A DNA stretch of 64,000 nt from Escherichia phage vB_Ec-G1, in sequence record PQ433349.1; one strand, written 5' to 3'. The notes under the pieces were generated by a model, which was given only the letters and a program-made list of their open reading frames with translations, searched no databases and was not told the DNA's origin. This document shows positions 5,468-57,115 of this stretch, piece by piece. Both the position numbers and the translations under genes were made by a program. Numbering within the stretch: position 1 is the first letter of the stretch; every line of letters starts with the position of its first letter.

Positions 5468-5776
5468 TCAACAAGTAATTTCAAAAGGTGTATACGGTTC
5501 CGTATTTCTCATGATCCAAGGACTGCTAGGATTGCTCGGATCATAAGGACCAAAAGGTTTTATGGTCGGTTGTGTTTCTTTCTTCTGAATCTCTTCAAAA
5601 ATACGACGAAGTTCAGAATATTCTTGATCCACCATAAGATTCGGTGCATCTGATTCTACAGCTTGCAGGTTATCTTCCTTAAGAACAATCTCACGAACAA
5701 GATTAACATCTTCTGTTTCTAAGATAACTTCTTTACGGATATTACCTACACTTTGAATAATTGTAATCTTATACAT
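5468..5776 (-). CDS. hypothetical protein (102 aa)
   Basis: Minus ORF. Confidence 0.45.
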   Translation of the reverse strand: MYKITIIQSVGNIRKEVILETEDVNLVREIVLKEDNLQAVESDAPNLMVDQEYSELRRIFEEIQKKETQPTIKPFGPYDPSNPSSPWIMRNTEPYTPFEITC

Positions 5777-6519
5777 TAATCCTCCTCAAGAGTTGAATAA
5801 AATTGAAGACCACCGTCCATATCGAAATAAGCAAATGTTAAGTTATTATTGAACACAGATCCAGTATCCATATAAACACGATTCGCATTGATAATAGGTG
5901 TTTTTACATAAGAGTGTCCATGAAACACATAATCCACACCCATCACAACAGGAAGTTTCATTCCCTCTTTAGCACAGTCTACCATATCTCTGTCCCACAT
6001 AAGTGCTTCAGCAAAACGGTTTTCCTGTGTTTTTGTCATCTTCGAAATGTATTCTGGAATATCTGTTACAGGGAGATATTCCAAAGAAGATGGATACCCA
6101 CCATGAATAAACGCAAGTTTCATGCCTCTGTAGTTAACAATGAGAACAACAGGTAAATCTTCTGTCATCATTGCTAAGGCTGTAGCTCCTTCTTCACCAC
6201 ATTCTTCAAAGACCGTATATCCTCCATTTTGATACCAACACTCGTAGTAGCTACGATCTCCTTCCAGCATACCTTTAATCATCATGTCTTCATGATTGCC
6301 ACGAATAGCGTAGCGATTGTGTTTACGAGTAAATTCTAAAACACAACGAAAGTTTTGCTTTCCACGGTCAGTAAGATCTCCTAGAGATACAACCACATCT
6401 GTATCTCGGATACCTAACTTTGCCTTTCCTTTTTCATACAAATTATAACAACCGTGTAGATCTCCAATTATAAAAAGATCTTGATCGCTTTTAACAGTAA
6501 TTTCTCTGTGTATGATCAC
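5776..6519 (-). CDS. Ser/Thr protein phosphatase (calcineurin-like metallophosphoesterase, PP-lambda type)
   Basis: GDLHG, GDLTDRG, GNHE metallophosphatase motifs in order. Confidence 0.85.
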   Translation of the reverse strand: MIIHREITVKSDQDLFIIGDLHGCYNLYEKGKAKLGIRDTDVVVSLGDLTDRGKQNFRCVLEFTRKHNRYAIRGNHEDMMIKGMLEGDRSYYECWYQNGGYTVFEECGEEGATALAMMTEDLPVVLIVNYRGMKLAFIHGGYPSSLEYLPVTDIPEYISKMTKTQENRFAEALMWDRDMVDCAKEGMKLPVVMGVDYVFHGHSYVKTPIINANRVYMDTGSVFNNNLTFAYFDMDGGLQFYSTLEED

Positions 6520-7887: not shown

Positions 7888-8123
7888 TAGTCTTCCCAGT
7901 CATTGTCCTCGGTAGAGTGAACCAAAGCTCGCACGATACCACCGTAATCTACTGCCTGATTTGCAGCATGTTCGGCATAAACTTCAATGGCTTTTTTGAA
8001 GAAAAGAGCAGTAGCTGCTTCAATATTATCCATTTCGCCATCTACGTCAGTAGAAAGTGAAAGGTTGAGGCTTTCATCTACTTCATCAAAATCAATAGCC
8101 ACTGTCATAATTAGTTTACCCAT
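7887..8123 (-). CDS. hypothetical acidic protein (78 aa)
   Basis: Small minus ORF, acidic. Confidence 0.4.
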   Translation of the reverse strand: MGKLIMTVAIDFDEVDESLNLSLSTDVDGEMDNIEAATALFFKKAIEVYAEHAANQAVDYGGIVRALVHSTEDNDWED

Positions 8124-8135
8124 AGTTCACACTCC

Positions 8136-8645
8136 TTAAACAAAATAAAATGGTTGAGAGAGGCCCAAACGATTTTTTGGGTCGTATACATACCAAGCGT
8201 ATGCTGTCTTATCTGTTCCACCTGCAACAAACGAAGGCCGTTCTGAAAGGACTATAAGGTTTGTTGGTGGATTCTTTTGATGGAACTCTCGTCGTTTCTT
8301 TGACTCCAAGAAGCCCAACCGAAGAAGATAAATACAAACATCCGCCTCTTTTAAGCTCTTTTCCAAGAACTCCATTGCTAACTTGAATGGAGGATTTGTG
8401 ATTATAATGTCGGGACGATTTTCCCATTCATGACTAAAATAATCTTTACCTTCTTCAAGTTCACAATATTCTGAACCTTCAGGAAAATGGCGATAAATCG
8501 CTTCAGCTTCACCTCTACAAGGTTCTGCAAAAATCCAACCTTCTTCCTTTAGATTTTTGAAATCTATAACACTAAACAAACTGTTGATTGCTTTTTGCGG
8601 TGTCGGATAATAATCGCTCGTTGGGCGATCATAATCTAATGCCAT
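8136..8645 (-). CDS. small DNA N6-adenine (or N4-cytosine) methyltransferase-like protein
   Basis: IITNPPF catalytic motif (NPPF/DPPY class) and upstream DYYPTP. Confidence 0.55.
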   Translation of the reverse strand: MALDYDRPTSDYYPTPQKAINSLFSVIDFKNLKEEGWIFAEPCRGEAEAIYRHFPEGSEYCELEEGKDYFSHEWENRPDIIITNPPFKLAMEFLEKSLKEADVCIYLLRLGFLESKKRREFHQKNPPTNLIVLSERPSFVAGGTDKTAYAWYVYDPKNRLGLSQPFYFV

Positions 8646-9063
8646 CTAAAATCTCCTCTTTTGTAATATTATCCAACTCTTTAAAGGATGAAATCTCGTT
8701 TAATAATCCTATTTGATCAGCCTCTAGAGGATAAGTGTTTTTATCTGTTTTTCTAGACAGAATATCTTCAACAAACTTATCAATAGCCAAAGAAGAATCA
8801 TAAAATTTTAAAAGTTGGTAATCCATAGGAGATATTTTGTCATCTCTTAGAAATATTTCTAACATGTTTTCAGGAGTATCGTGGTTTAGTTTATGTTCAC
8901 CAAAAATATTAACTTCGTAAACATCTTTGCCAAACCAACGTTTTTTCTTTTCAACAGTATAGGTTTTTGCCACCAGACCATCTAAACAGTTTCTTGCCCT
9001 CTTACATGTTTGACGGTAAGAGTGGATAGCGCCTTCAACAAACTTAGCAGGAACTTGTAACAT
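8629..9063 (-). CDS. hypothetical protein (144 aa)
   Basis: Minus ORF. Confidence 0.5.
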   Translation of the reverse strand: MLQVPAKFVEGAIHSYRQTCKRARNCLDGLVAKTYTVEKKKRWFGKDVYEVNIFGEHKLNHDTPENMLEIFLRDDKISPMDYQLLKFYDSSLAIDKFVEDILSRKTDKNTYPLEADQIGLLNEISSFKELDNITKEEILDGIRL

Positions 9064-9108: not shown

Positions 9109-9801
9109 TTAAATAGCGGTTCCTTCGAAATCCGCCACATTTACGAGATTAATATTTTCAGATTTAGAAGTCAAGTTGTTTTCTGCAACAGATTTTTCTT
9201 CAGTATCCGCCTCGTTACCTGCCACGTTACGAGGTTCTTCTTCACCGTAGGGATTACCGAATTTCAAAAGATTGATCAATTCTTCTTTGGAGAAGTTTTC
9301 TAAATCATCGTCTGTTAATTCAATAATCTCATCTTGTTCTTCAACAAATGTTTCACCACCAGAAAAAGCATCTCGCTTTTTAGCTACTTCCATAGCCTGT
9401 TCTGGTGTTGCCCCTGCATCAAGAGCAGCTAAAGCAAAGTCTGACCCGCTTCCTACCGCATAATATTCTTCATCAATCGGATATGCACGTGTTGGGTTGT
9501 TACCTTCGTGCAGGAAAATACGTCCGTCAGGATGAACAACAAGTGCAATAAACTCTTCATCTTCTTTATCTGGATCAGAGTGAATCATCAAACCAGGGAC
9601 AGCATCACGTGCTGCTTCGCACTGTAGATTTTGTTCAAACCATTGAAAGAAAGAAAGCACGGAGGTCAGACGACCAGCACCACCTACAAGGTAATCTCCA
9701 ATTTTTCGGACCTTTTTGAAATTAATAGAATCTACACGTCCACCAAAAGTTACCTTACCGTCACTCAAAATCTTATTTTTGGTTGCAATAATTGTCGTCA
9801 C
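9109..9801 (-). CDS. HslV-like Ntn-hydrolase peptidase with acidic C-terminal extension
   Basis: N-terminus MTTIIA...DG...VTFGG, KKVRK...GGAG and AVGSGSDFALAA align with HslV core; no HslU-like ATPase adjacent. Confidence 0.8.
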   Translation of the reverse strand: MTTIIATKNKILSDGKVTFGGRVDSINFKKVRKIGDYLVGGAGRLTSVLSFFQWFEQNLQCEAARDAVPGLMIHSDPDKEDEEFIALVVHPDGRIFLHEGNNPTRAYPIDEEYYAVGSGSDFALAALDAGATPEQAMEVAKKRDAFSGGETFVEEQDEIIELTDDDLENFSKEELINLLKFGNPYGEEEPRNVAGNEADTEEKSVAENNLTSKSENINLVNVADFEGTAI

Positions 9802-11795: not shown

Positions 11796-12056
11796 TTACT
11801 CCGCAATTTGAGCCATGAGATCACGCAGTTCGGTAAAACCGCCTACGTATGTTACCTCCCCGTTCACTTCAGACAGAATTTGTGGAAATGTGCGTGGAGG
11901 AACTCCGGTAAGATCAACAACTGTTTTAGTCATTGATTCTAAATCATAGTCTTGGTCAAGACTTAAATATTCAAACTGTTTATTGCGCATAGTCAATAGT
12001 TGTTTTGACATTTCACAAAATTGACAGTTAGGTTTACCAAAAATTACAAATTCCAT
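11796..12056 (-). CDS. glutaredoxin/NrdC-like redoxin
   Basis: CQFC active-site CxxC near N-terminus, GGF near C-terminus; adjacent to RNR genes. Confidence 0.75.
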   Translation of the reverse strand: MEFVIFGKPNCQFCEMSKQLLTMRNKQFEYLSLDQDYDLESMTKTVVDLTGVPPRTFPQILSEVNGEVTYVGGFTELRDLMAQIAE

Positions 12057-12898
12057 TACCTCTCCTTATTAAGTAATACTGCTAAAGACTGTTCAATACC
12101 TTTATTTAAATCTGATTTTGTAAGATAGTGACTGGTTACTAGTTGTGACTTCACCGGACGTGCTGCTGGAGCATTATAGGTTGAAGCTGATACCGCCGAT
12201 ATCTTAACAGGTTCTGGCATCTGTGTCAAGATCTTTTCCGCAAACTCCGCCCAAGAAATAAGATGGCTTCCTGCAAAATGGTAAGTCTTAACAGACCTTG
12301 ACCAACCTGTTTTTAATACTTCAAAAATAGCTTCTGCTAAATCTGGAGCATATGTTGGACAAGAGAACTGATCAGCAACAATAATAAAATCACGTTGTCC
12401 ATCATTATAGCGAGACAACATGGTTTTTAGAAAGTTATTTCCAAATTCGCTATATACCGAGGCTGTTCGAATAATATATGCATTTGGGTTAACTCCTCGC
12501 ACCATTTTTTCACCAAGTTCTTTCGTATACCCATAATTGTTTATTGGGTTAGGTGTAGTATCTTCAAAAATAGGATGAGAATAATTAAAAATATAGTCTG
12601 TGGAAATATGCACAAAATCAATTTTAAGTTTGCTGCACAGTGCCGCAATATTTGCAGGGCCATAAGCATTAACAGCCAAAGCAGTAGCAAAATCTTGTTC
12701 GGCTTTATCTACAGCCGTATAAGCGGCGCAATTAATAACACCATCTACATAATCTTCAATAATAGCGTTTCGCACAGCTTCAAAATTTGTAATATCTACA
12801 CGTTCTTTAGGATAAATTAAAGATACATTTGCAGGGGCAACTTTACGTAAAGCTTGTCCCAGTTGTCCATTACCACCCAATACCAAATATGTTAGCAT
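12056..12898 (-). CDS. rmlD: dTDP-4-dehydrorhamnose reductase
   Basis: STDYIF, YGYTKELGEK, RTASVYS, NF..TML, DQFSCPT motifs matching RfbD/RmlD. Confidence 0.85.
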   Translation of the reverse strand: MLTYLVLGGNGQLGQALRKVAPANVSLIYPKERVDITNFEAVRNAIIEDYVDGVINCAAYTAVDKAEQDFATALAVNAYGPANIAALCSKLKIDFVHISTDYIFNYSHPIFEDTTPNPINNYGYTKELGEKMVRGVNPNAYIIRTASVYSEFGNNFLKTMLSRYNDGQRDFIIVADQFSCPTYAPDLAEAIFEVLKTGWSRSVKTYHFAGSHLISWAEFAEKILTQMPEPVKISAVSASTYNAPAARPVKSQLVTSHYLTKSDLNKGIEQSLAVLLNKER

Positions 12899-13458
12899 AC
12901 ACCCTCGCTACGTAGCTGTTGAAAAGACTTAGCCATTGCATCTTTTGTTGATAAGATAGGTTTAAAATCTTCGTCAAAAATCATATCGAAGCCCCAATCA
13001 ATCCCTATATCAGGATCATCCCAACGTAAACTTTGTTCGCTGGAAGGGTCGTATGGAGTTGTGCATTTGTATTCGAAGATAGCATCCATACTCAACACTA
13101 TAAAACCATGTGCCAAACCAGGTGGAAGCCAGAACTGTGTATGGTGTCGTGCACGAAGAACAACACCGTCCCAAGCACCGTAAGTAGGACTATCTTTACG
13201 TAGGTCTACAGCGAAATCCAATACTTCCCCACTTACACAACGAACAAGCTTACCTTGCGGATTATTTGTTTGAAAGTGCATTCCTCGCAAAACACCGAAG
13301 TTTGATTTAGACATGTTATCTTGAACGAAAGTTTGTCTACCAATGATATCTTCGTATTTTTGTTCATTATATGTTTCTAAAAAGAAACCACGATCATCTT
13401 TATAAACGTCTGGTTTGATAATTACCGCACCTTCAATTTTTGTTTTTTCTACTTTCAT
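12892..13458 (-). CDS. rmlC: dTDP-4-dehydrorhamnose 3,5-epimerase
   Basis: [44 protein letters not shown] motifs; ATGA overlap with rmlA stop. Confidence 0.85.
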
Positions 13459-14333
13459 TTTCTCTCCGCTAATTTGAGCAGGTATTGCCCGTACTCTGTT
13501 TTCTTCAGTGAGTTTCCATGATAGACCAAAGTCTCTAAAGAAATCCACCCTTTTTTGAAAGCAATTTCTTCCAGGCACGCAATCTTCAATCCTTGACAGT
13601 TCTCAATAGTCTGCACGAATTGACCAGCTTCCATCAGACTGGCGTGTGTTCCTGTGTCAAGCCAAGTAAATCCTCGTCCGAGAACTTCTACTTGTAACTT
13701 CCTGTCTTCGAGGTAGCTGCGATTGATATCGGTGATCTCCAGTTCTCCACGCGCGGAAGGGGTTACTTCTAATGCACGTTGAATAACAGAGTTATCATAG
13801 AAATACAAACCTGTGACAGCATAATCTGATTTAGGATTTTCAGGTTTCTCTTCAATAGAAATAGCTTGATGATTACTCCCAAATTCAACCACACCGAATC
13901 GTTCAGGATCTTTCACCAAATACCCGAAGATACAAGCTCCGCCACAAACATCTACCATCTCACTGGCGTTAATCAGTAGTTTACCAAAGCTTTGTCCGAA
14001 GAATAGGTTGTCACCTAAAATAAGAGCAACAGAGTCTTCTCCGATAAAATCTTTACCGATGATGAAAGCGTCCGCAAGACCTCGTGGCTCGGATTGGATT
14101 GCATAAGTGAGTTTTATCCCAAACATAGACCCATCTCCGAGAAGATACTCAAAGTCTTCCTGATCGCCTGGTGTGGTGATGATTAAGATATCCTTAATGT
14201 CAGCCAACATCAATACCGATAAAGGGTAGTAGATCATGGGTTTGTCATACACAGGGAGCAATTGCTTGCTCACACTGCGTGTTACCGGATGAAGGCGGGT
14301 TCCACTTCCTCCCGCCAAAATAATACCTTTCAT
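13455..14333 (-). CDS. rmlA: glucose-1-phosphate thymidylyltransferase
   Basis: [40 protein letters not shown] pattern; start at ATG 14333 with AAGGAGG SD. Confidence 0.9.
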
Positions 14334-14341
14334 AGCCCTCC

Positions 14342-15334
14342 TTAAATCTTCCCACTCCACCATTGAGGGTTGTTTAAGTACCATTCAATCGTTGAGTAGA
14401 GATCTTGTTCAAATGTAGAGTTTGCACTCCAACCCAGTTCAGACTCTATCTTAGAAGGATTGATTTCATAACGCAAGTCATGTCCTTTACGATCTTCAAC
14501 AAAAGTTATCAAGTTGGAAGAAGGGTAGGTTCCTGCTTCTGGATGTACAGCATCCATGTAGTCACAAACCATATAGATGATCTCCATATTGGTTTTGGGA
14601 TTACGTGTTCCCACATTATACGTTTGACCTGGTTCTCCACCTGTTGCCACTTGAAGAATAGCTCGCGCATGATCCTCAACAAAAAGCCAGTCTCGCACCT
14701 GATCGCCTTTACCATACACCGGAATCTCTTTATTCGTCAAGATACTTGTGATGATTTTTGGGATCAGCTTTTCTGGATGTTGATAAGGTCCAAAGTTATT
14801 GGAGCAGTTGGTTATCACAACAGGTAAACCGTAGGTACGGTACCAAGCTTTCACAAGATGGTCAGATGCTGCCTTAGACGCACTGTACGGGCTTGAAGGG
14901 GCATAAGCTGTCTCTTCGGTAAAGGGAACGCCAGAGTCTGCCATATCGCCGTACACTTCGTCTGTGGAGACGTGTACGAACATCTTCAGTTTATTTTTTG
15001 GGAGGAGCCTTGCAGCTTCCAATAAATTGTATGTGCCAATAATATTGGAGTCGATGAAAACTCGTGGATTCTTGATAGAATTATCCACATGACTCTCTGC
15101 CGCTAAGTGAATGATGAAATCGGGATTGCACTCTACTACTAAACTTTTGACCTGGGTTTCGTTTGCCAAATCTGTTATGCTTAGTTTAACGTGAGTGATA
15201 TCGCCTACATTCTCAATATCTGCTGCATAGCCCATCTTATCAACGACAAAAACTTCGTTATTGGGATCTTGACAAAGAGAGCGCACCACGGCACTCCCAA
15301 TAAAACCAAGACCACCTGTTACCAGATAGCGCAT
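14342..15334 (-). CDS. rmlB: dTDP-glucose 4,6-dehydratase
   Basis: [10 protein letters not shown] Rossmann motif, YSASKAASD catalytic Yxxx[18 protein letters not shown]. Confidence 0.9.
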
Positions 15335-27722: not shown

Positions 27723-28448
27723 TTACTTGTTAATAATATCTGCAATATTAGGTTTGACAAAGGTCGATGGTTTCATGATCTTACCTTTATCATCAAAGAA
27801 CACATACACTTTCTGTTTTTCATTATAAACAGCATGAACACCAGTGTATGCCCCTTCTGGACGATTGGCATTTCGTTCTTCAATTGCAGCGCATTCTTGT
27901 GCAATGGCTGAATCGATATCCGAAGTTTTCCAAGTTTTCAGCAACTGTTGTTTAGTTGGATACTTGGAATCATTACTTTTCAATACCTCTTTAATAACTT
28001 TCTTTTCTGGATATTTTGAACGGATTAGAGTGTCACGAGACATACGCATAATACCAGCAGCCATTAGTGCCATTTGAACTGGCTCTGTAAATGTTTGTTC
28101 CAAAGCATCGAAATCGGTATACACAGTTGGAGTAAAAACATCGCCTACAGCATAGTCCAAGAAATTCATCGTATGTTCTTCACCAAAAAACATGTAAGTC
28201 AGATAACTGGATACTACAAAAATATCCGCTGCTGCATCCAAGAGTTCTACATGATCGTTTACTTTCGCGGCTGTTTCATACTCTTTAAGCTCTTCACGAA
28301 CGAACCCGATTTGGGACATAAATAGCTCTTGAGTGAATTCAGGTTGTTCACCACCTCGTGCTTTGGCATTCCAATCAATTACGTGCTTTGCTGCATTTTT
28401 GAAAAATTCAGTATCGAATTTAATATCTTTAAAAAAATTCTCGATCAT
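27723..28448 (-). CDS. MazG-like all-alpha NTP pyrophosphohydrolase
   Basis: EELKEYE...ELLDAAAD acidic helix motif characteristic of MazG/dCTPase-like enzymes. Confidence 0.5.
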   Translation of the reverse strand: MIENFFKDIKFDTEFFKNAAKHVIDWNAKARGGEQPEFTQELFMSQIGFVREELKEYETAAKVNDHVELLDAAADIFVVSSYLTYMFFGEEHTMNFLDYAVGDVFTPTVYTDFDALEQTFTEPVQMALMAAGIMRMSRDTLIRSKYPEKKVIKEVLKSNDSKYPTKQQLLKTWKTSDIDSAIAQECAAIEERNANRPEGAYTGVHAVYNEKQKVYVFFDDKGKIMKPSTFVKPNIADIINK

Positions 28449-28457
28449 TATAACTCC

Positions 28458-28640
28458 TTATTTAAAATAGCTTTCTAGAAATTTGCTAATATTTACTACA
28501 GACTCACCCATGTAAATCCCTGCGAAACCGAAAACAAGCATACGTGGAATATTGAAATACCATTTATCCGCCGGAAAAGATGCCAGAATTACAATAGCAA
28601 TTGCTATCAACATCATAAGAATTGTTGCTAAAATTATCAT
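28458..28640 (-). CDS. small membrane protein
   Basis: Hydrophobic helices; start refined to ATG 28640 (GGAGG SD) to remove overlap. Confidence 0.4.
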   Translation of the reverse strand: MIILATILMMLIAIAIVILASFPADKWYFNIPRMLVFGFAGIYMGESVVNISKFLESYFK

Positions 28641-28831
28641 AAAAATGCCTCCAGGTATTTTGCACAATGATAAGCTAAGAAACAAGAAACTACCGCATAC
28701 CCAACTCCAGACATACATGAATCAATCGCAACACATATGGTTCTTTTCTTTGAATTCTTAGGAAAGTTTTCAGAAGCATTCATACAATAAAAAGAAAGCA
28801 CACTGAAAACGATTAAAATGGCTAAGAACAT
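28637..28831 (-). CDS. small membrane protein
   Basis: AGGAGG SD before ATG 28831; hydrophobic N-terminus. Confidence 0.45.
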   Translation of the reverse strand: MFLAILIVFSVLSFYCMNASENFPKNSKKRTICVAIDSCMSGVGYAVVSCFLAYHCAKYLEAFL

Positions 28832-28840
28832 TTTTCCTCC

Positions 28841-29956
28841 TTATTCTGCTGGTTCCCAAGTGCCTGGGATCATTTCTCGAATACGAACACCAACAGGTTT
28901 TGTTGGAATACCTTCATCTGAAAATTCTTCATACTCTATTTCAACGAACTGATTAATCAAGGTAGAAGCATTCTCTGCTTTACGATAATTGATAGTCTCA
29001 TGAGCATCTTTACGCATTAAGAATTCGACTACTTTACCATTTTCCATCTCACCTGTCAACACTCCATCACCATTTTTATCACTTTTTGAATTTGTTACTT
29101 TAACTTCAAGGGTGTGGCGAGGCTTACGTTTAATAACGTCATAAGAACGTTTATCAAATTCGTAAACTCCGTGAGCATTACGATATACTACACCTTCAGC
29201 TTTCTCAAGTAAAGCTTTTTCATAGAAAGCATCAAACTGTTCTTGGTTTTCAATATACTCTGTATGAACTACGCAAATAAGCTCGTCAAGACCATAATCT
29301 TCAACTACTGCCTTAAGAGCAGCAAGAACATCAACACGTTTTTCAAACGGTAGATCTGGAACTGGAATATCATATACGTAATAATTCAGCAAAGGTGTAT
29401 TTGCATTATGCTTCTTCCAGGCACTGTTAATTTGTTGCAGACTAAGAACACCTAACCCAGCAAACACTTCACCATCAAGAGGATGACCAACAACTTCACT
29501 AATAAAGTTTGGAATACCTTTCCAATGAGGTGGCAGGTTATACACTTCTCCAGCTTTTGATAAACACTCCCCTTTCATGTTAATCATAGAACGTAACCCG
29601 TTCAGTTTGTATTGTGCATAACCAGGGAACACAACCCTTTCAGGATAATCTTTATAATCCTGGCATTTCATTGGTGTGGAAGGAACATGGTTTTCAGCTT
29701 CTTCTTTTGTTTTATAATAGCCATTCTTTAACTGTTTTGTCCATTTGGCAAAAGCTTCAAGTTCAGCTTGTTCTTCTGGTGTTGTTTCATTGGAACGACC
29801 GATGTTTTTTGCTTCTGCTGTATAAGATTTTTCTGTGATTTTTCCACCTACCCTTCCATGAGCTACAGTAACAACTGCACCATCTGTATACACTGTCCAC
29901 TGTTTAAGTTTTCCTTTTGAATCTTTACCATACAGCGTTTGATTTGTTTGTTGCAT
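28841..29956 (-). CDS. ATP-dependent DNA ligase
   Basis: Motif I KLNGLR (KxDG-like), DGEVF, motif IV EGVVYR, motif V IKRKP; start refined to ATG 29956. Confidence 0.8.
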   Translation of the reverse strand: MQQTNQTLYGKDSKGKLKQWTVYTDGAVVTVAHGRVGGKITEKSYTAEAKNIGRSNETTPEEQAELEAFAKWTKQLKNGYYKTKEEAENHVPSTPMKCQDYKDYPERVVFPGYAQYKLNGLRSMINMKGECLSKAGEVYNLPPHWKGIPNFISEVVGHPLDGEVFAGLGVLSLQQINSAWKKHNANTPLLNYYVYDIPVPDLPFEKRVDVLAALKAVVEDYGLDELICVVHTEYIENQEQFDAFYEKALLEKAEGVVYRNAHGVYEFDKRSYDVIKRKPRHTLEVKVTNSKSDKNGDGVLTGEMENGKVVEFLMRKDAHETINYRKAENASTLINQFVEIEYEEFSDEGIPTKPVGVRIREMIPGTWEPAE

Positions 29957-30177
29957 TAGTCCTCCCATTTAAAAACTGAAATTTTCAATCTGTTACACAC
30001 TTCATCCAAATCTGCGTCGAGTAACGTTGTAGATGTTGCCAACATATAATCAATGCTTGTGAAACCTTGCCCTTTGGCATAGTCAAGCATATCTTCATAC
30101 ATATCTTCAAGATCACCGTCATCAAAAGTAGCTAGAAAATCCTCGTCCCCACTACGAACATAAAATGCAGTACTCAT
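29956..30177 (-). CDS. hypothetical acidic protein (73 aa)
   Basis: Minus ORF. Confidence 0.45.
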   Translation of the reverse strand: MSTAFYVRSGDEDFLATFDDGDLEDMYEDMLDYAKGQGFTSIDYMLATSTTLLDADLDEVCNRLKISVFKWED

Positions 30178-30362
30178 TCATCTTCATCCCAAGATTCAAA
30201 AGCACAGCAGTCATCGGTTTCTATAGTACCAGTACGTCCACAAGAAAGGCAAGTGATTTTATCACCGTAGAATACATAATTCTCGTCTCCGTTGGTATTC
30301 ACGGAAATCTGATCACTGCCACAGGGACATTCCAACCAAGGCACAATGATATCTTTCTTCAT
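30174..30362 (-). CDS. small zinc-ribbon protein
   Basis: CPCGS...CLSCGRTG four-Cys pattern. Confidence 0.45.
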   Translation of the reverse strand: MKKDIIVPWLECPCGSDQISVNTNGDENYVFYGDKITCLSCGRTGTIETDDCCAFESWDEDE

Positions 30363-30371
30363 GTTTTCTCC

Positions 30372-30524
30372 TTAACCTTTAGGTGTGCAGAATCCACGAT
30401 CAAATACATTCTTACGGATGCCTTCTGCTAAAGCCATCTCACAAGCCCCTTGCGATCCGAATTCTTGTGTATAATCATTACTACCATGACTCCAAAGAGC
30501 AAACAAAATATAGATTGTTGCCAT
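30372..30524 (-). CDS. small hypothetical protein (50 aa)
   Basis: Unlisted short ORF MATIYILFALW... with AAGGAGG SD. Confidence 0.3.
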   Translation of the reverse strand: MATIYILFALWSHGSNDYTQEFGSQGACEMALAEGIRKNVFDRGFCTPKG

Positions 30525-30533
30525 TTTTCCTCC

Positions 30534-30860
30534 TTAAGCATTCAGTTCGTTGTTGAGTTCGTAAATCTCCTCCTGGAGAGCATCAATCTCTTCTTCCAAA
30601 CGGGAGATCTCTTCTTTTAGATATACCATTTCGGATTCTTTCTCTTCTAATTCATTTTCAAATTTTACTTTATTAGCCTCATTTTCATAATGCAGTTCAG
30701 CGTAATCATCACGCATTTGTTCAATAAGATGAATCAGAGACAAGATATAATTGTCTCCCGTTTCATCACGCCACTCTTCACCGTGACGGAGAACGGTAAT
30801 TCGTCCAGTATCTTCATCTAAAATTGTCTCATATTTACGATCATCTGTATAAATCTGCAT
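30534..30860 (-). CDS. hypothetical coiled-coil protein
   Basis: Heptad-like EE/LE-rich C-terminal half. Confidence 0.5.
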   Translation of the reverse strand: MQIYTDDRKYETILDEDTGRITVLRHGEEWRDETGDNYILSLIHLIEQMRDDYAELHYENEANKVKFENELEEKESEMVYLKEEISRLEEEIDALQEEIYELNNELNA

Positions 30861-30869
30861 TATTTCTCC

Positions 30870-31274
30870 TTATTGAAGTTTAAGTGAACCACGAAGACGT
30901 TTCTCTTGCTGATCACGGATATATTGTGGAACATCGTGAATTGAATCATTACCGTGCCTATTTTCAACAACTAAAGAGATAACTTGATAACCAAACTCTT
31001 CAGCAAGAGCTAGATAAGGTTTAAGTTCTTTCTCTGTGGTTGAAGTATTAGAAACAATAATCTTGTTAAGATTAGATGCCATAGCATCACGAACAATACC
31101 CTGACACCATGCGTGTGCTTTACCTACATTTTCTGGCTTCCAGTCGTAAACACCACTTGCTGTGTAATGATATTGATCTGCCTCACAGATAGGCCAATAA
31201 CCTTCAGAAATAATTTCTGCTACCGTAGATTTACCAGCACCTGAAACGCCACGTAAAATGATAAGTTGTTTCAT
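30870..31274 (-). CDS. P-loop polynucleotide 5'-kinase-like protein
   Basis: MKQLIILRGVSGAGKST Walker A at N-terminus as in T4 Pnk kinase domain. Confidence 0.65.
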   Translation of the reverse strand: MKQLIILRGVSGAGKSTVAEIISEGYWPICEADQYHYTASGVYDWKPENVGKAHAWCQGIVRDAMASNLNKIIVSNTSTTEKELKPYLALAEEFGYQVISLVVENRHGNDSIHDVPQYIRDQQEKRLRGSLKLQ

Positions 31275-32207
31275 TTATCCTCCAAAGAAGTTTTCGATTT
31301 TTTCACGTCGCTCTTGCTGATTTAAAGCAGCCCATTGAGTCTTCGTAAAATTATTTCGAATCCATTCTAACAAAGCGTAATATTCTTCGTCAACAATTTG
31401 TTTGGCATTTTTCGGATTATCCCAAATCAGATCCCACTTTTTATCTCCACCGCGCATAAGAAACTTCTTAGTAAGATAGTGTGGTGATTTAATTTTTAAA
31501 AGTAAGTTGAACGGATAGTTTGTTTCACGAACTACAAACCCTTCGTGTTTACAATGTTTAGACATTTCAACAACATCTGAAAACTTAACCATTGGATGAA
31601 CTTCAGGACGCTTAAATTTGGTGACAGAAGCAATTCCATCAAGAGCACCTTCAGGTAACATAAAACTTGTCCCATCAGGATTTTGAATTCTGGCACCAAT
31701 TAAGTATGCACCTGGTTCTTCTTCGACAATATGCGGATCAGAAGGATCACAGATTTCAAAAAGGAAAGTTGCTTTTGCACTCTCTGTCCATTTGATGAAA
31801 TGTTCTATGTCATCACACTCTGAAACAATATGCTTCTTTGCAATACTTGCAAAATCTGATTCAAGGCTTCCTGTTGTCGATACAATAAGTTGACCTTTAT
31901 ATACACCTACAGAGGCCATAAAACCATTTACTTTACGAACCACATCTACAAGTTCATCCGCTGGTAGATCTGTGCCATTCTCAAAACGATTAAAAATCTT
32001 AGTGAAAGGCCAAATAACAACATTGTCATCAGCGTCAACAACGATTCCGCGACATTCTAGAAGACGAGAATCAATGCTCCATAAGTTATCCCAGAAAACT
32101 TTGTTCTTATACTTAAGAACAGATAGACCAGAATACTCTCCTTCTTTATATGTTTTCTTATGAACTAAACCTTTTTCAACCAAATCGTCGCAATTAAATT
32201 TAGCCAC
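31275..32207 (-). CDS. RNA ligase-like nucleotidyltransferase (Rnl2-type)
   Basis: Motif I-like KVNG, motif IV EGFVVRE, motif V LKIK; flanked by kinase and phosphoesterase. Confidence 0.55.
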   Translation of the reverse strand: MAKFNCDDLVEKGLVHKKTYKEGEYSGLSVLKYKNKVFWDNLWSIDSRLLECRGIVVDADDNVVIWPFTKIFNRFENGTDLPADELVDVVRKVNGFMASVGVYKGQLIVSTTGSLESDFASIAKKHIVSECDDIEHFIKWTESAKATFLFEICDPSDPHIVEEEPGAYLIGARIQNPDGTSFMLPEGALDGIASVTKFKRPEVHPMVKFSDVVEMSKHCKHEGFVVRETNYPFNLLLKIKSPHYLTKKFLMRGGDKKWDLIWDNPKNAKQIVDEEYYALLEWIRNNFTKTQWAALNQQERREKIENFFGG

Positions 32208-32208
32208 A

Positions 32209-32760
32209 TTACTCTCCTTTGATTATTTTGTGATGGTCTACAGTCACGATATCTCGTTTACTCATCATAGAAATTATCTCATCAAAATGCAAGATTTTTC
32301 CGTGTGCATCCCAACCCACATCTAACATTTTACCATAAGCTTCATCAGGGAAAGATCCGTGGGAATGCCCGTGTAGCATGATTGATCCACGACCTTGTTT
32401 ATTCCAGGAGGCCATAGGGTAATGGCTTAAGACGAAGAACAGCTTCTGATATTTCACTTCGTCATAATACACCACTTCTCCATACTCTGCAAGCACTTCT
32501 CGGTGTTTGCTGTAGTCATGGTTCCCAACACAGTAGGTGATATCTCCTTGGAGACGGGAAGCAATTTTACGGGTATCTTCTTCAGTTCCGAAACAGAAGT
32601 CGCCCAAATGCCACATCTTAACACCAGGAGTAGTAGCACATTTGTTCCATGCTTCGATCAAGGCTTCTGTCATGTGGTCCATATCTTCCCAGGGACGATA
32701 TTCAGGAGCAAACTCTCGAATACGTTTATGCATAAAATGCAAATCGCTTGTAATAAACAT
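32209..32760 (-). CDS. calcineurin-like metallophosphoesterase
   Basis: DLHFMH, GDFCFG, GNHD, HGHSH motifs. Confidence 0.75.
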   Translation of the reverse strand: MFITSDLHFMHKRIREFAPEYRPWEDMDHMTEALIEAWNKCATTPGVKMWHLGDFCFGTEEDTRKIASRLQGDITYCVGNHDYSKHREVLAEYGEVVYYDEVKYQKLFFVLSHYPMASWNKQGRGSIMLHGHSHGSFPDEAYGKMLDVGWDAHGKILHFDEIISMMSKRDIVTVDHHKIIKGE

Positions 32761-33116
32761 TAGTATAATCCCTCGCTAAATAATTCATGGTCGTGACCAT
32801 TACGCTCATGGTCGATCTGGTCAGCATTTTCCGCGATGATGTAAGCATCCGCACGACTCCACCAATTGTAATACTGATCGATAAAGCCTTGATTATCTGG
32901 TCTGCACAAAGTTTTGTTGATTACACCTGCTTCTTTCAACACGTTTAACTGTGCATATAGTACAGGATTTGCATGTCGAACACAAGGAATAATTAACTCT
33001 TCACCATTATTCAAAATATACTTATTTGCAGCACAGACGATAACACGTTGCGCATAATGACCCTCACCCATCCAAGTGAGAGGTTGGTAACAAATGTTCT
33101 GATCAATACTGCTCAT
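32760..33116 (-). CDS. hypothetical protein (118 aa)
   Basis: Minus ORF. Confidence 0.5.
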   Translation of the reverse strand: MSSIDQNICYQPLTWMGEGHYAQRVIVCAANKYILNNGEELIIPCVRHANPVLYAQLNVLKEAGVINKTLCRPDNQGFIDQYYNWWSRADAYIIAENADQIDHERNGHDHELFSEGLY

Positions 33117-33127
33117 TAAGTTTCTCC

Positions 33128-33484
33128 TTAATAGTGAACACGCTTCATTTGAATACCATAACGCAGCATGGATTCTTTTGCAAGCATGAATTTATCCCCA
33201 GCGGAGGGATTAGAAGTATGCACGAAAATAGTAGGTGAACCAAAACAAGGTTTACCAAACATCAGGAGTTCTTCCAAACGTAAGAAAACATCATACCCAT
33301 CTTGATCAGAGTCTTCACCCAAATCGTTGTCAAAATGCCACTCGTCTACAAAACGATAACCCTTCTGCACCTCGTTCATGTAACGAGAGGCAAGAAGTTC
33401 CTGTGATGTTTTAAACCAGATTGCATCTGGATAACCATAATCTTTTGGATCACGTAAATCATCAAGCCAAATAATAGTATCCAT
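33128..33484 (-). CDS. hypothetical protein (118 aa)
   Basis: Minus ORF. Confidence 0.5.
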   Translation of the reverse strand: MDTIIWLDDLRDPKDYGYPDAIWFKTSQELLASRYMNEVQKGYRFVDEWHFDNDLGEDSDQDGYDVFLRLEELLMFGKPCFGSPTIFVHTSNPSAGDKFMLAKESMLRYGIQMKRVHY

Positions 33485-37238: not shown

Positions 37239-37313
37239 GGCCCTGTAGCTCAATGGGAGAGCTGTCGGCTCATAACCGATAGGTAGCTGGATCGAAACCA
37301 GCCAGGGCCACCA
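37239..37313 (+). tRNA. tRNA-Met (anticodon CAT; elongator or Ile2-type)
   Basis: Acceptor GGCCCTG/CAGGGCC, anticodon loop CTCATAA, T-arm, encoded CCA. Confidence 0.75.
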
Positions 37314-37315
37314 AC

Positions 37316-37390
37316 GTCTTTATGGTGTAATGGATAGCACAGGAGTCTTCTAAACTCTTAGTCAAGGTTCGATTCCTTGTAAAGACACCA
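37316..37390 (+). tRNA. tRNA-Arg (anticodon TCT)
   Basis: Acceptor GTCTTTA/TAAAGAC, anticodon loop CTTCTAA, T-loop TTCGATT, CCA. Confidence 0.8.
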
Positions 37391-37586
37391 GAACATTTTA
37401 ACATGAATTAGCTCAAGTGATTTGAACCCACTACTGATCATGGTGGCAGAGAATGAGGCAAGTATGTCAGACATTATAAACAAAGGCCACGGTTATATTA
37501 GAAGACATAAATGCTCGAAGAGCACCGTTCGTGGAGAACGGGGGTTGGTGGAGTCACCATTCATGGTAAAATGTTTTAAAAAACTA

Positions 37587-37615
37587 TTGACAACAAACAT
37601 TATTTTATGTTAGAT
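37587..37615 (+). promoter_or_regulatory. candidate sigma70-type promoter upstream of tRNA-Ser
   Basis: TTGACA, 17-nt spacer, TTAGAT. Confidence 0.4.
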
Positions 37616-37624
37616 TATAAATAT

Positions 37625-37715
37625 GGAAGGGCAAATCGACGTGGCGACGAAAACGGTCTTGAAAACCGCCGAGCTTGAAAGAGCCTTGGGAGTTCGACTC
37701 TCCCTCCTTCCGCCA
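37625..37715 (+). tRNA. tRNA-Ser (anticodon TGA), type II
   Basis: Acceptor GGAAGGG/TCCTTCC, anticodon loop CTTGAAA, long variable arm, CCA. Confidence 0.7.
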
Positions 37716-37740
37716 GATTGGTAGATTGGTAGATTGGTGA
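37716..37740 (+). repeat. tandem direct repeat (gattggta x3) overlapping tRNA 5' end
   Basis: gattggtagattggtagattggtg read directly. Confidence 0.6.
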
Positions 37741-37813
37741 AATGGTAGCCACAACAGTTTGCTAAACTGTAGTCGGAAACGGCGTGTAGGTTCGAGTCCT
37801 ACATCTACCGCCA
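37728..37813 (+). tRNA. tRNA-Ser (anticodon GCT), type II
   Basis: Acceptor GGTAGAT/ATCTACC, anticodon loop TTGCTAA, long variable arm, CCA. Confidence 0.7.
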
Positions 37814-37943
37814 AGTTCTTTTTAATATAGCTTACTTTAATAGAGTAAATTTTCGGCAGATGGCCCCCATCATCTTACCGATACCTCATAGTTAGTGGTG
37901 CGAACACTGGCTATTTTAAAAAGAATTTAAATATTAGTATTTA

Positions 37944-38031
37944 GGTGAGTTAATTCCGTAGGGGTAGCGGGGCAGACTGTAAATCTGTTATCATTGCGAT
38001 TCGGGTGGTTCGACTCCATCACTCACCACCA
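37944..38031 (+). tRNA. tRNA-Tyr (anticodon GTA), type II
   Basis: Acceptor GGTGAGT/ACTCACC, anticodon arm GCAGA-CTGTAAA-TCTGT as in bacterial tRNA-Tyr, discriminator A, CCA. Confidence 0.7.
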
Positions 38032-38037
38032 AATTAA

Positions 38038-38123
38038 GATGAGTTGGCTGAATGGTTTAAGCAGCGGACTGTTAATCCGTGTTCGAAAGAACAATATAGG
38101 TTCGAATCCTATACTCATCGCCA
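38038..38123 (+). tRNA. atypical tRNA with anticodon GTT (Asn) on a Tyr-like type II scaffold
   Basis: Acceptor GATGAGT/ACTCATC, anticodon loop CTGTTAA, extra GTTCGAAAGAAC hairpin before T-arm, discriminator G, CCA. Confidence 0.5.
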
Positions 38124-38130
38124 GAATTAT

Positions 38131-38207
38131 GGACTTGTAGAGTTAAGGTAAACCCCCAGTCGCCAATAGGCTTCTGGAATTGCAGGTATCGAATCCTGCC
38201 GAGTCCC
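38131..38207 (+). ncRNA. tRNA-like element without canonical anticodon arm (possible pseudo-tRNA)
   Basis: Acceptor-like GGACTTG/CGAGTCC and T-arm-like GCAGG-TATCGAAT-CCTGC, but no 5-7-5 anticodon arm with U33 could be folded. Confidence 0.3.
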
Positions 38208-38213
38208 AGCATT

Positions 38214-38288
38214 GCTCCTATAGTATAATGGCTATTACAACGGTTTTGTAATCCGTGGATCTCTGTTCGATTCAGTGTGGGAGCACCA
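38214..38288 (+). tRNA. tRNA-Thr (anticodon TGT)
   Basis: Acceptor GCTCCTA/TGGGAGC, anticodon loop TTTGTAA, T-loop TTCGATT, CCA. Confidence 0.7.
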
Positions 38289-38561
38289 ACACAACATTAA
38301 GAGCACTGTGATTGATCGTCGTATCCTGTGCACAAGGTCTGCTCGAAAGACAGTGTTCTTAGTATTGTGTTGATCACAAAAAGAGTCACCCGAAACTTGA
38401 CCGGAGTAGGGTTGGATGGGGCAAAATGAGAAGCGGCTCTCCCATCGACAGCAACGAAGAATAATATTTGACTTTGGTTTTGTATTATTTTAAGTTAGCT
38501 TACCGAACGTAGGGCTAGTCACCCAACGGGATACTCGTCACTGTCCCAATCAATAAAAGTC

Positions 38562-38591
38562 TTGACAACAAATAGTAAAATGTAGTATAGT
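38562..38591 (+). promoter_or_regulatory. sigma70-type promoter upstream of tRNA-Gly
   Basis: TTGACA, 18-nt spacer, TATAGT; tRNA starts about 12 nt downstream. Confidence 0.6.
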
Positions 38592-38602
38592 AAATATATA
38601 GG

Positions 38603-38676
38603 GCGTTCTTGGTGTAGCGGTAGCATTCCGTCCTTCCAAGTCGGCGGCACGAGTTCGATCCTCGTAGAACGCTCCA
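38603..38676 (+). tRNA. tRNA-Gly (anticodon TCC)
   Basis: Acceptor GCGTTCT/AGAACGC, anticodon loop CTTCCAA, T-arm ACGAG-TTCGATC-CTCGT, CCA. Confidence 0.7.
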
Positions 38677-38774
38677 AATTATTTAATAAAGGGTTGCCAG
38701 AAAACTTTCTCTTTTACTCATGGTTTTCTCCTTCTCTCACACTTCTTCTGGTTGCCCTTCATTAAATGATTTAT

Positions 38775-38850
38775 TGGTTTGTAGTGTAGTCCGGTAGCAC
38801 ACGACACTTTGACTGTCGTAGGTTTGGTTCAAATCCAGACAGACCAGCCA
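38775..38850 (+). tRNA. tRNA-Gln (anticodon TTG)
   Basis: U1:A72 acceptor TGGTTTG/CAGACCA, anticodon arm CGACA-CTTTGAC-TGTCG, CCA. Confidence 0.75.
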
Positions 38851-38855
38851 TATAA

Positions 38856-38932
38856 CGGAGTTTAGCTCAGTTTGGTAGAGCATACGCTTTGGGAGCGTAG
38901 GGTCGCAGGTTCGAATCCTGCAATTCCGACCA
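38856..38932 (+). tRNA. tRNA-Pro (anticodon TGG)
   Basis: C1:G72 acceptor CGGAGTT/AATTCCG, anticodon arm TACGC-TTTGGGA-GCGTA, T-arm GCAGG-TTCGAAT-CCTGC, CCA. Confidence 0.8.
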
Positions 38933-38938
38933 ATTAAA

Positions 38939-39012
38939 TGTTTCGTAGTTCAATGGTAGAACCCACGACTGATAATCGTGAGACACAAGTTCGATTCTTG
39001 TCGAAACAACCA
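38939..39012 (+). tRNA. tRNA-Ile (anticodon GAT)
   Basis: Acceptor TGTTTCG/CGAAACA, anticodon arm CACGA-CTGATAA-TCGTG, T-loop TTCGATT, CCA. Confidence 0.75.
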
Positions 39013-39014
39013 GT

Positions 39015-39085
39015 TTCCCGTTAGACTTACAGGATAAGAGTTCCACAGCTTATTGTGATGCTGGTTCGAATCCAGCACGGGATAC
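39015..39085 (+). ncRNA. degenerate tRNA-like element (intact T-arm, no canonical anticodon arm)
   Basis: T-arm GCTGG-TTCGAAT-CCAGC and acceptor pairing TTCCCGT/ACGGGAT present; no loop with U33 and purine-37 found. Confidence 0.3.
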
Positions 39086-39090
39086 ATAAT

Positions 39091-39169
39091 AGCGGGATAG
39101 AGGAGTCTGGTCGTCCTCGCCAGTTTCATATGCTGGAGATCATCGGTTCAAATCCGATTCCCGCCTCCA
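39091..39169 (+). tRNA. tRNA-Met (anticodon CAT), second copy, A1xC72 mismatch
   Basis: Anticodon arm CCAGT-TTCATAT-GCTGG, T-arm ATCGG-TTCAAAT-CCGAT, CCA; first acceptor pair unpaired. Confidence 0.6.
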
Positions 39170-56104: not shown

Positions 56105-57115
56105 ATGGCAGAAAGAGAGTATACAAAAGCTCCTGCCCCTAATTTAAACAGGGCATACAAATTATTAATTGGTTCTGCCACAAACACAATACAGAAGAGA
56201 ACTAAGAACTCGGCATTTAAATCTACAGTAGATTTGGATACCAAGTTAGGGACAACAGAAAAATCCTCTTCTAATTTGTATTTGTTGCAAGACCATCAAA
56301 TAACCTTCAGTATTAAGAAAGATAATAACAAAGATCCTAACCAAGCAGAGATTGTAGTTTATAACCTTTCGGATGATACTGTTAACTATATAAACCGTGG
56401 TATCCGAAATAACTTGGCTGTTGCTTTAGCGGTAGGATACGAAGGTGAAGAGTTGGTTATGGTCTTCAAAGGAACTATCCAGTGGGTTAGTGATACTTTT
56501 GACTCGGTAGACAGGAAAACCACTTTACACTGTTTGGATGGCGGTATTAACATTGCAGAAGCAAGAACAAGCCGCAGTTATCCAAAAGGAACTAAAATCA
56601 AACGTGTTGTGACAGATTTGGTAAAGGATTTAGGAACTACAGAAGGTAATATACACGTAGATAATGATCAAACCTTATCCTCAGCAACAGCTATGTGTGG
56701 AAACACTTCACATTACCTAGAACATATTTGTAAAAGTATTGATCACAATGTGTCAATACAAGATGGATCTGTTTATGTCACTCCTCGTTCACAAATGTCT
56801 AGTGCACGTAGCGCCTACATTAGCCCTGAAACTGGTCTGATAGGAAGTCCAGAACCATTCCACAACGATATAAAACCTACTAAAAAAGTTACCAAGTCAT
56901 CTAAGAAGGCAAAGAAACCTACAGATGGTGTTAAATTCAAATGCCAAATGAATGGTGCAATATTACCAGAAAAAACAATCTGGTTAAAAAGCCGAGATTA
57001 TGATGGTCCATTTAAAGTTGTTTCTGTTTCTCACAATGGTGATAAAGAGGGTAAAGAGTGGGTTACTGAAGTGGAGTGTGTATCCGTGTCTGAAATAATG
57101 ACTAAGGAGAAATAA
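56105..57115 (+). CDS. hypothetical baseplate hub-like protein
   Basis: 336-aa ORF preceding spike-like gene. Confidence 0.5.
   Translation: MAEREYTKAPAPNLNRAYKLLIGSATNTIQKRTKNSAFKSTVDLDTKLGTTEKSSSNLYLLQDHQITFSIKKDNNKDPNQAEIVVYNLSDDTVNYINRGIRNNLAVALAVGYEGEELVMVFKGTIQWVSDTFDSVDRKTTLHCLDGGINIAEARTSRSYPKGTKIKRVVTDLVKDLGTTEGNIHVDNDQTLSSATAMCGNTSHYLEHICKSIDHNVSIQDGSVYVTPRSQMSSARSAYISPETGLIGSPEPFHNDIKPTKKVTKSSKKAKKPTDGVKFKCQMNGAILPEKTIWLKSRDYDGPFKVVSVSHNGDKEGKEWVTEVECVSVSEIMTKEK

Follow-up and report, generated by a model that had tools for sequence, protein, structure and literature searches.

In a 64,000-nt stretch of Escherichia phage vB_Ec-G1 (PQ433349.1; hereafter the window, at its full length), we analyzed a block of co-directional genes at positions 30870-33484 that probably constitutes a phage system for healing and sealing RNA ends, as judged from the protein sequences and their gene neighborhoods. 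A preliminary description of the same DNA had proposed a three-gene RNA repair cassette at 30870-32760, and three minus-strand open reading frames (ORFs) were found at exactly those limits. The healing-and-sealing part of that proposal is supported by gene linkage, by protein fusions, and by the exchange of one RNA ligase family for another, but the unit comprises at least five genes rather than three. The genes of the block are as follows.

30870-31274, minus strand: stand-alone Pnk-like P-loop kinase of 134 amino acids (aa), recognized from the ORF list and from AAA_33 and PHROG matches
31275-32207, minus strand: ATP-dependent RNA ligase of the Rnl1 family, 310 aa, GTG start (PF09511, phrog_562)
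32209-32760, minus strand: binuclear metallophosphoesterase of the aq_1665 subfamily, 183 aa (Metallophos, Metallophos_2, phrog_547)
32760-33116, minus strand: PF26092-family protein, 118 aa, inside the block and probably accessory
33128-33484, minus strand: cREC protein (cyclic-phosphate processing receiver domain), 118 aa (PF20274)

The block is tightly packed. The stop codon of the ligase gene is followed immediately by the start codon of the kinase gene (0-nt gap), the phosphoesterase stop and the ligase start are 1 nt apart, and the phosphoesterase start overlaps by 1 nt the stop of the PF26092 gene upstream. The PF26092 and cREC genes lie directly upstream of the phosphoesterase gene in the same direction, and genes for a MazG-like protein and a DNA ligase lie downstream of the kinase gene. 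All of these belong to a single minus-strand gene block that extends leftwards from ~36 kb, where the GC skew changes sign. Promoter- and terminator-like sites between 27.5 and 37.3 kb were not in excess over shuffled sequences (34 versus 28.5 +/- 5.0 and 8 versus 5.8 +/- 3.0, respectively), and therefore no separate operon could be defined within this tight co-directional packing.

The source phage falls into the genus Phapecoctavirus (Stephanstirmvirinae), the phAPEC8 group of E. coli myoviruses with genomes of ~150 kb. The 3-kb region of the cassette is 98.7% identical to that of phage nepoznato and 95-99% identical to those of 56 GenBank phages, where the three genes carry varying names such as 'putative RNA ligase', 'ATPase / putative polynucleotide kinase', and 'phosphoesterase'. 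Some GenBank records mislabel the cREC gene as 'RNA ligase and tail attachment protein'. In phage nomo (locus L083), the kinase gene (5469-5879) is labeled 'phosphoesterase', and a second 'Sir2-like' label belongs to a 714-bp gene (8046-8759) directly downstream of Sir2. The 'tail-fibre attachment' activity of T4 gp63, implied by PHROG and GenBank names, was set aside as an inherited label.

By its sequence profile and predicted fold, the product of the central gene is an RNA ligase of the Rnl1 family and not a DNA ligase paralogue. The preliminary description had proposed hidden Markov model (HMM) classification of the ligase as a check, and the protein matched the RNA_lig_T4_1 family (PF09511) along the entire model (positions 1-227 of 227, E 2.8e-15, 57.2 bits at a gathering cut-off of 28.3) as well as phrog_562 (E 1.6e-70). 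The KxNG, EGFVV, and LKIK motifs reported earlier are present as K92-V-N-G (motif I), E222-G-F-V-V (motif IV), and L237-K-I-K (motif V). Across 34 homologues with identities down to 50%, the residues K92/N94/G95, E151, E222/G223, K238/K240, R53/G54, and K70/F72 are invariant, and K92 is the predicted adenylylation site. Single-sequence searches of the PDB gave marginal matches for both the ligase (best E 0.21) and the kinase (best E 0.012), and thus homologue profiles were needed. The profile of the 34 ligase homologues matched T4 Rnl1 as the sole PDB entry (E 2.8e-10) and aligned with its LECRG, PMEKFFN, TKEDG, NFEFV, EGYVA, and FKIKS segments, so that the Rnl1-specific upstream elements ECRG and PxxKxF are present in the window protein.

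An AlphaFold2 model of the ligase (predicted local distance difference test score of 92) retrieved by Foldseek the fungal Trl1 ligase domains and T4 Rnl1 as its top matches (E 4e-13 to 6.5e-12), the best Trl1 structures being 9qw7, 6n0t, and 6n67 (E ~4e-13). Weaker fold matches were obtained for Rnl3 (9e-10 or worse), Rnl2 (1e-6), Rnl5 (6e-6), and DNA ligases (8e-5 or worse). The earlier concern that the ligase might be a DNA ligase paralogue is answered by both the Rnl1 profile and the fold; moreover, since a separate ATP-dependent DNA ligase is encoded at 28841-29968, the Rnl1-like enzyme is not the DNA ligase of the phage. Homologues of the RNA ligase were detected in 684 of 50,697 GenBank phage records, ranging from coliphages to phages of Pseudomonas, Vibrio, Klebsiella, Acinetobacter, and Streptomyces.

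The kinase is likely a polynucleotide kinase, predicted to phosphorylate RNA 5'-OH ends. Its sequence matched PF13671 AAA_33 (E 2.2e-10), phrog_2071 (E 3e-56), and, more weakly, phrog_505 'polynucleotide kinase' (E 4e-8). The profile built from 25 homologues recovered Capnocytophaga Pnkp1 (4xrp, 2e-8), T4 Pnk (1ly1, 5e-8), the tRNA kinase PSTK (5e-8), the kinase domain of CthPnkp (4gp7, 1e-6, with a full-length alignment), and mammalian PNKP (4e-6), in line with the Pnk-like P-loop kinase of the preliminary description. In these 25 homologues G9, G12, G14, K15, T17, and D33 are invariant; the P-loop G12xGK15(S/T) and D33, the predicted catalytic Asp, align with the P-loop of T4 Pnk and with the Asp of its 'NRDDY' segment. 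Short matches of the same profile to the P-loops of other kinases, among them adenylate kinase 9, score on par with the polynucleotide kinases, and therefore the polynucleotide kinase identity is likely but falls short of proof by sequence. The protein is a single 134-aa domain without a fused HAD 3'-phosphatase, and more than 540 relatives of it were found in IMG/VR.

The third protein, a calcineurin-like phosphoesterase already in the earlier account, scored above the cut-off of PF00149 Metallophos (24.9 versus 21.5 bits) and also matched Metallophos_2 and phrog_547 (E 6.5e-56). The five metal-ligand motifs (D6xH8, G53D54, G79N80H81, H113, and G131H132xH134) are all unchanged throughout the 18 homologues compared. 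The sole strong PDB match of its profile was Aquifex aq_1665 (1xm7, E 7e-23), followed by GpdQ-like phosphohydrolases (7e-4). From its genomic context, the enzyme is predicted to act as a 2',3'-cyclic phosphodiesterase and/or 3'-phosphatase.

The three core genes proved to be strongly coupled in evolution, and comparative genomics thus supports a joint function. We collected 80 IMG/VR loci with ligases 41-88% identical to that of the window, recorded neighbors within 8 kb, and grouped the loci by 80% ligase identity into 51 clusters. A kinase homologue was present in 74 of the 80 loci and a phosphoesterase homologue in 66. Of the 51 clusters, 43 have the kinase adjacent or fused to the ligase and 42 have the phosphoesterase next to it, and the gene order varies: phosphoesterase-ligase-kinase, kinase-ligase-phosphoesterase, and divergent arrangements were all observed. 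In 13 viral loci the kinase and ligase form a single ORF of ~432 aa, and in Cardiobacteriaceae a kinase-ligase fusion is followed downstream by an aq_1665-type phosphoesterase gene. Other cellular relatives of the ligase occur mainly in Leptolyngbyaceae cyanobacteria, as the C-terminal domain of 710-770-aa proteins that combine an AAA_33 kinase, a Metallophos domain (Pnkp/PrpE-like), and RNA_lig_T4_1. This triple fusion is found in ~25 cyanobacterial genomes; examples from Leptolyngbyaceae are encoded at the following positions.

L099, 4588-6903: triple fusion
L106, 4765-6903: triple fusion
L111, 4687-6933: triple fusion

The kinase-phosphatase part of the cyanobacterial fusions resembles bacterial Pnkp (partial match to TIGR04075, E 6e-53), whose domain order the fusions share, although their sealing domain is of a different type.

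A second set was anchored on the kinase and comprised the best 80 of the more than 540 IMG/VR kinase relatives (L119-L196 among the loci), with partners sought within 3 kb. A phosphoesterase was found in 47 of these loci, an Rnl1-like ligase in 29, and a DNA ligase in 10. The pair of small kinase and aq_1665-type phosphoesterase is commoner in this set than the Rnl1-like ligase. When the large neighboring ORFs were surveyed in 42 representative kinase loci lacking an Rnl1-like ligase, the commonest family was an RNA ligase combining PF09414 with the OB-fold domain PF21189, which made up 10 of 59 ORFs and adjoins the kinase-phosphoesterase pair in about 10 of the 42 loci. Because this ligase takes the place of the Rnl1-like enzyme, the kinase-phosphoesterase pair appears to be a healing module joined to at least two unrelated RNA-sealing enzymes, and a role of such a module in DNA repair or nucleotide metabolism is therefore hard to reconcile with the data.

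Beyond the block, four features of the window bear on its interpretation.

27723-28448, minus strand: MazG-superfamily NTP pyrophosphohydrolase, 241 aa (PF01503 PRA-PH, E 2.5e-6)
28841-29968, minus strand: ATP-dependent DNA ligase, 375 aa (PF01068, E 1.7e-9; phrog_114, E 1.9e-74)
37239-39169, plus strand (divergent): island of 10 tRNA genes found by ARAGORN, 3.8 kb from the cREC gene
5776-6519, minus strand: second metallophosphoesterase (Metallophos, E 2.7e-13), labeled NinI-like Ser/Thr phosphatase in relatives

The second metallophosphoesterase is of the lambda-phosphatase type and lies 25 kb from the cassette. It is an alternative candidate for 3' end healing, because RNA 2',3'-cyclic phosphodiesterase activity has been demonstrated in the clade of lambda phosphatase and the Pnkp phosphatase (PMC2190708). 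The annotation of phage ukendt, a close relative, points to two further features in the left part of the window, both on the minus strand: a dTDP-rhamnose biosynthesis set of four genes (12056-15334) and an HslV/proteasome-like peptidase (9109-9801), which matched the Pfam family Proteasome with E 1e-5.

The cREC protein scored well above the cut-off of PF20274 (50.7 versus 27 bits, E 2.9e-13). Its orthologues with 56-61% identity adjoin the ligase gene in the rV5-like phage nomo and in phage Mydo, and the Rec-like acidic site (D8-D9, D52/D54, T90-S91, and K98) is kept in the Mydo and rV5-like orthologues. For this family, Aravind's group predicted ring opening of 2',3'-cyclic phosphates or of cyclic ADP-ribose phosphate (PMC7824862, PMC9503650), and the window protein is accordingly a predicted metal-independent cyclic phosphodiesterase. 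A 118-aa ORF between the phosphoesterase and ligase genes of Mydo was considered as a PF26092 homologue and proved not to be homologous. Among the 80 ligase-anchored loci, cREC was found in 10, PF26092 in 3, and MazG in 13, all of them rV5/phAPEC8-like relatives. Iterated HMMs did not extend any of the three families past these relatives in the same 80 loci, and thus all three were treated as lineage-specific accessories and not as core components.

Neither the block nor its vicinity contains a Sir2 gene. In phage ukendt (NC_052661.1), Sir2 is at 56566-57366 (167-967 of the extracted locus, L002) and the ligase at 87638-88570; this Phapecoctavirus Sir2, ~30 kb from the cassette, maps just beyond the left end of the window. 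In rV5-like phages and Mydo, by comparison, Sir2 adjoins the ligase and cREC genes. Of the 51 representative loci, 25 have tRNA genes at most 8 kb from the ligase, a count that was made without a genome-wide control and is therefore only suggestive, and ARAGORN detected no tRNA introns or split tRNAs in the window. Amber-suppressor-like tRNAs (anticodon cta, reported by ARAGORN as tRNA-Pyl) lie within 8 kb of the cassette in loci L032, L041, L054, and L080, and tmRNA-like genes within the same distance in L057 (14177-14579) and L080 (16407-16729), all of these being uncultivated phage contigs.

The substrates of the predicted system, the order of its steps, and the division of labor between the phosphoesterase and cREC may be pictured as follows. 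A metal-independent endoribonuclease of the host or of a competitor would cut RNA, most plausibly in a tRNA anticodon loop, to leave a 2',3'-cyclic phosphate and a 5'-OH. The metallophosphoesterase would then open and remove the cyclic phosphate to yield a 3'-OH, with cREC possibly performing the ring opening, and the small P-loop kinase would phosphorylate the 5'-OH with ATP. Finally, the Rnl1-family ligase would self-adenylylate on K92, transfer AMP to the 5'-phosphate, and seal the nick. A tRNA or anticodon-nuclease target would follow the example of phage T4, whose Pnk and Rnl1 counter the PrrC anticodon nuclease (Amitsur 1987, as cited in PMC12409363), and it is by this analogy that we propose a counter-defense role.

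The reading as RNA healing and sealing withstood all computational tests applied. Several observations nevertheless weigh against it. The phosphoesterase belongs by sequence to the uncharacterised aq_1665 subfamily and not to the lambda phosphatase/CthPnkp clade, neither phosphatase of which was reached by its profile at E <= 0.1 in the PDB, and for this reason its assignment as the 3' end-healing enzyme rests on genomic context. The ligase scored only 23.8 bits against TIGR02308, the NCBIfam equivalog for T4 RnlA (cut-off 242), and is thus a member of the Rnl1 family but not an RnlA orthologue. The C-terminal domain of T4 Rnl1, which confers tRNA specificity, has ~120 aa; the helical C-terminal domain in the model of the window ligase has ~65 aa, approximately half of that. 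The sole basis for a link to tRNA is the proximity of tRNA genes, which is suggestive and lends the tRNA target weak support. In the kinase-anchored set, 24 of the 80 loci had the phosphoesterase alone and 22 had no probed partner within 3 kb, and with so many kinase loci lacking a ligase, the kinase-phosphoesterase pair may also have ligase-independent roles. DNA ligase genes, in turn, are frequent neighbors of the RNA ligase (within 8 kb in 30-44 of 80 loci). Finally, our literature search found no biochemical or genetic studies of any cassette component and no publication linking Phapecoctavirus with an RNA ligase, and the text of a HIDEN-SEQ preprint about a phage of the Vequintavirinae contains no discussion of the cassette genes.

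An alternative is a different chemistry of the same RNA-sealing type, modeled on fungal and plant Trl1, in which cREC or the phosphoesterase would convert the cyclic phosphate to a 3'-OH/2'-PO4 end, the ligase would require this 2'-PO4 like the fungal and plant tRNA ligases, and the phage Sir2 homologue would remove the junction 2'-phosphate with NAD+ in the manner of Tpt1/KptA. We regard this variant, already put forward in PMC9503650, as unlikely but deserving of attention. Indications for it are the invariant KxNG motif I of the ligase, which is the form found in fungal Trl1 (PMC10946426) in place of the KEDG of T4 Rnl1, and the Trl1 ligase domains that head the Foldseek matches; the location of Sir2 beside the cassette in Mydo and the rV5-like phages and its presence in Phapecoctavirus genomes point the same way. 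The sequence profile, however, reaches T4 Rnl1 and not Trl1, which stayed undetected even at E <= 10. Sir2 in Phapecoctavirus is, moreover, distant and outside the window, and no requirement for it is evident in most loci that carry all three core genes. The broader proposition that these phages carry an equivalent of Trl1/Tpt1, with the sirtuin as a new RNA 2'-phosphotransferase, together with a healing module portable between at least two unrelated RNA ligase families and serving to counter many tRNA-cleaving defenses, is likewise one to which we assign a rather low probability.

Other explanations depart further from RNA repair as a counter-defense. The cassette might serve housekeeping, that is, maturation or re-joining of phage tRNAs and transcripts or repair of collateral damage by phage RNases. 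The tRNA genes near about half of the representative loci and close to the block in the window would suit this, as would the position of the cassette in a long early/metabolic gene block with promoter- and terminator-like sites at the level of shuffles. The tRNAs of the window, however, offer no introns or split genes to process, and the sole experimentally established role of a phage Pnk and Rnl1 pair is counter-defense against PrrC (Amitsur 1987, as cited in PMC12409363); we consider housekeeping improbable. Still less credible is DNA end-processing, with the kinase and phosphoesterase cleaning 5'-OH/3'-phosphate nicks for the neighboring DNA ligase and the Rnl1-like protein being incidental. 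T4 Pnkp acts on DNA as well as on RNA, the DNA ligase gene is located 0.9 kb downstream of the kinase gene in the window and recurs near the RNA ligase in other loci, and the phosphoesterase weakly matches the ligase-associated PdeM (E 0.0034). The order-independent coupling and the fusions, on the other hand, involve the Rnl1-type RNA ligase and not the DNA ligase, just one-eighth of the kinase-anchored loci (10/80) have a DNA ligase within 3 kb, and loci without the Rnl1-like gene are enriched for a partner from a different RNA ligase family. Finally, the phosphoesterase and cREC could destroy immune signals derived from cyclic nucleotides or ADP-ribose (CBASS, type III CRISPR, and Thoeris), the linkage to the ligase and kinase being incidental. 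Both cREC and calcineurin-like enzymes have been discussed as processors of cyclic ADP-ribose and cyclic nucleotides (PMC7824862, PMC9503650), and many loci have the kinase-phosphoesterase pair but no detected ligase. This too seems to us very improbable, given that the phosphoesterase adjoins the ligase in 42 of 51 clusters, that an analogous metallophosphoesterase domain is fused between kinase and ligase in cyanobacteria, and that a polynucleotide kinase partner would be of no obvious use to a signal-degrading enzyme.

RNA end healing and sealing, which we favor, would matter because tRNA-cleaving defenses are now seen as common and include PrrC, RloC, PARIS, retron-associated PtuAB, collateral cleavage by Cas13, and HEPN toxins. 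To our knowledge, the documented phage answers to tRNA cleavage are just two: spare phage tRNAs and the T4 Pnkp/Rnl1 pair. Should the cassette prove to repair cleaved tRNA, it would rank as the principal RNA-repair counter-defense outside T4, and a function would be assigned to the aq_1665 subfamily of metallophosphoesterases and to cREC. The cassette is readily testable, being present in coliphages of the therapeutic type for which E. coli K-12 is a host. It is widely distributed and tRNA-targeting immunity is topical, although the finding will not surprise specialists.

The activities predicted for the cassette, 5' phosphorylation, 3' end healing, and ATP-dependent sealing, are the chemistries of T4 Pnkp and Rnl1. 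The kinase profile matches T4 Pnk, and the ligase is of the same family as T4 Rnl1, whose R54, K75, F77, K99, G102, E159, E227/G228, and K240/K242 have aligned equivalents in the window protein. The two systems differ in that the healing functions of the window are separate proteins and its phosphatase is a binuclear metallophosphoesterase where T4 Pnkp has a HAD/DxDxT domain, both of which the preliminary description had recognized and the separate ORFs and Metallophos family membership bear out. The ligase differs from T4 Rnl1 in its KxNG in place of KxDG, in the shorter C-terminal domain, and in failing the RnlA equivalog, and the window has the cREC gene in addition.

The use of a metallophosphoesterase for 3' healing has, in principle, a precedent in bacterial Pnkp. 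Like the cassette, CthPnkp of the Pnkp/Hen1 system combines a P-loop 5' kinase, a metallophosphoesterase for 3' healing, and a ligase; the window kinase aligns with its kinase domain over the full length, and the cyanobacterial relatives of the window ligase bear kinase-phosphatase modules that resemble Pnkp and follow its domain order. In contrast to this single 870-aa polypeptide, the window genes are separate, the phosphoesterase is of the aq_1665 type instead of the lambda-phosphatase type, and the ligase is of the Rnl1 type, with the Pnkp ligase domain outside the top 50 fold matches. No methyltransferase or Hen1 gene was seen beside the cassette among the flanking ORFs scanned or the annotated neighbors in relatives, a survey that did not include a Hen1-specific scan of the window. 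Fungal and plant Trl1 (ligase-kinase-cyclic phosphodiesterase) similarly unites the three activities, provides the best structural match to the window ligase, and shares its KxNG motif I; it differs in lacking a sequence-profile match from the window ligase and in having a 2H enzyme as cyclic phosphodiesterase.

The closest counterpart is the 'type 2' RNA-repair neighborhood predicted by Iyer, Burroughs, Anantharaman, and Aravind (Viruses 2022, section 3.7.3; PMC9503650), with Escherichia phage V5 and Proteus phage Mydo, 'medium-sized phages', as prototypes. This sirtuin-centered neighborhood was described as comprising a T4-like tRNA ligase, cREC, a nucleotide kinase, and MazG, with or without a calcineurin-like phosphoesterase (PMC9503650). 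The window ligase is orthologous to the ligases of these phages (58% identical to that of Mydo and 48% to those of rV5-group phages), the same cREC, small kinase, calcineurin-like phosphoesterase, MazG, and neighboring DNA ligase are present, and the ligase, cREC, kinase, MazG, and phosphoesterase genes all fall within 27723-33484 on one strand. The window differs in its rearranged single-strand order (cREC, PF26092, phosphoesterase, ligase, kinase), in the insertion of the PF26092 gene, which is absent in Mydo, and in the sirtuin, which is not adjacent in Phapecoctavirus but lies at a distance in close relatives. Based on the orthologous ligase and the shared neighbors, we concluded that the cassette is a further member of this already predicted system, to which the present analysis adds the quantified linkage of the core genes, the fusion proteins, the exchange of RNA ligase families, the aq_1665 assignment of the phosphoesterase, and the Trl1-like motif I of the ligase.

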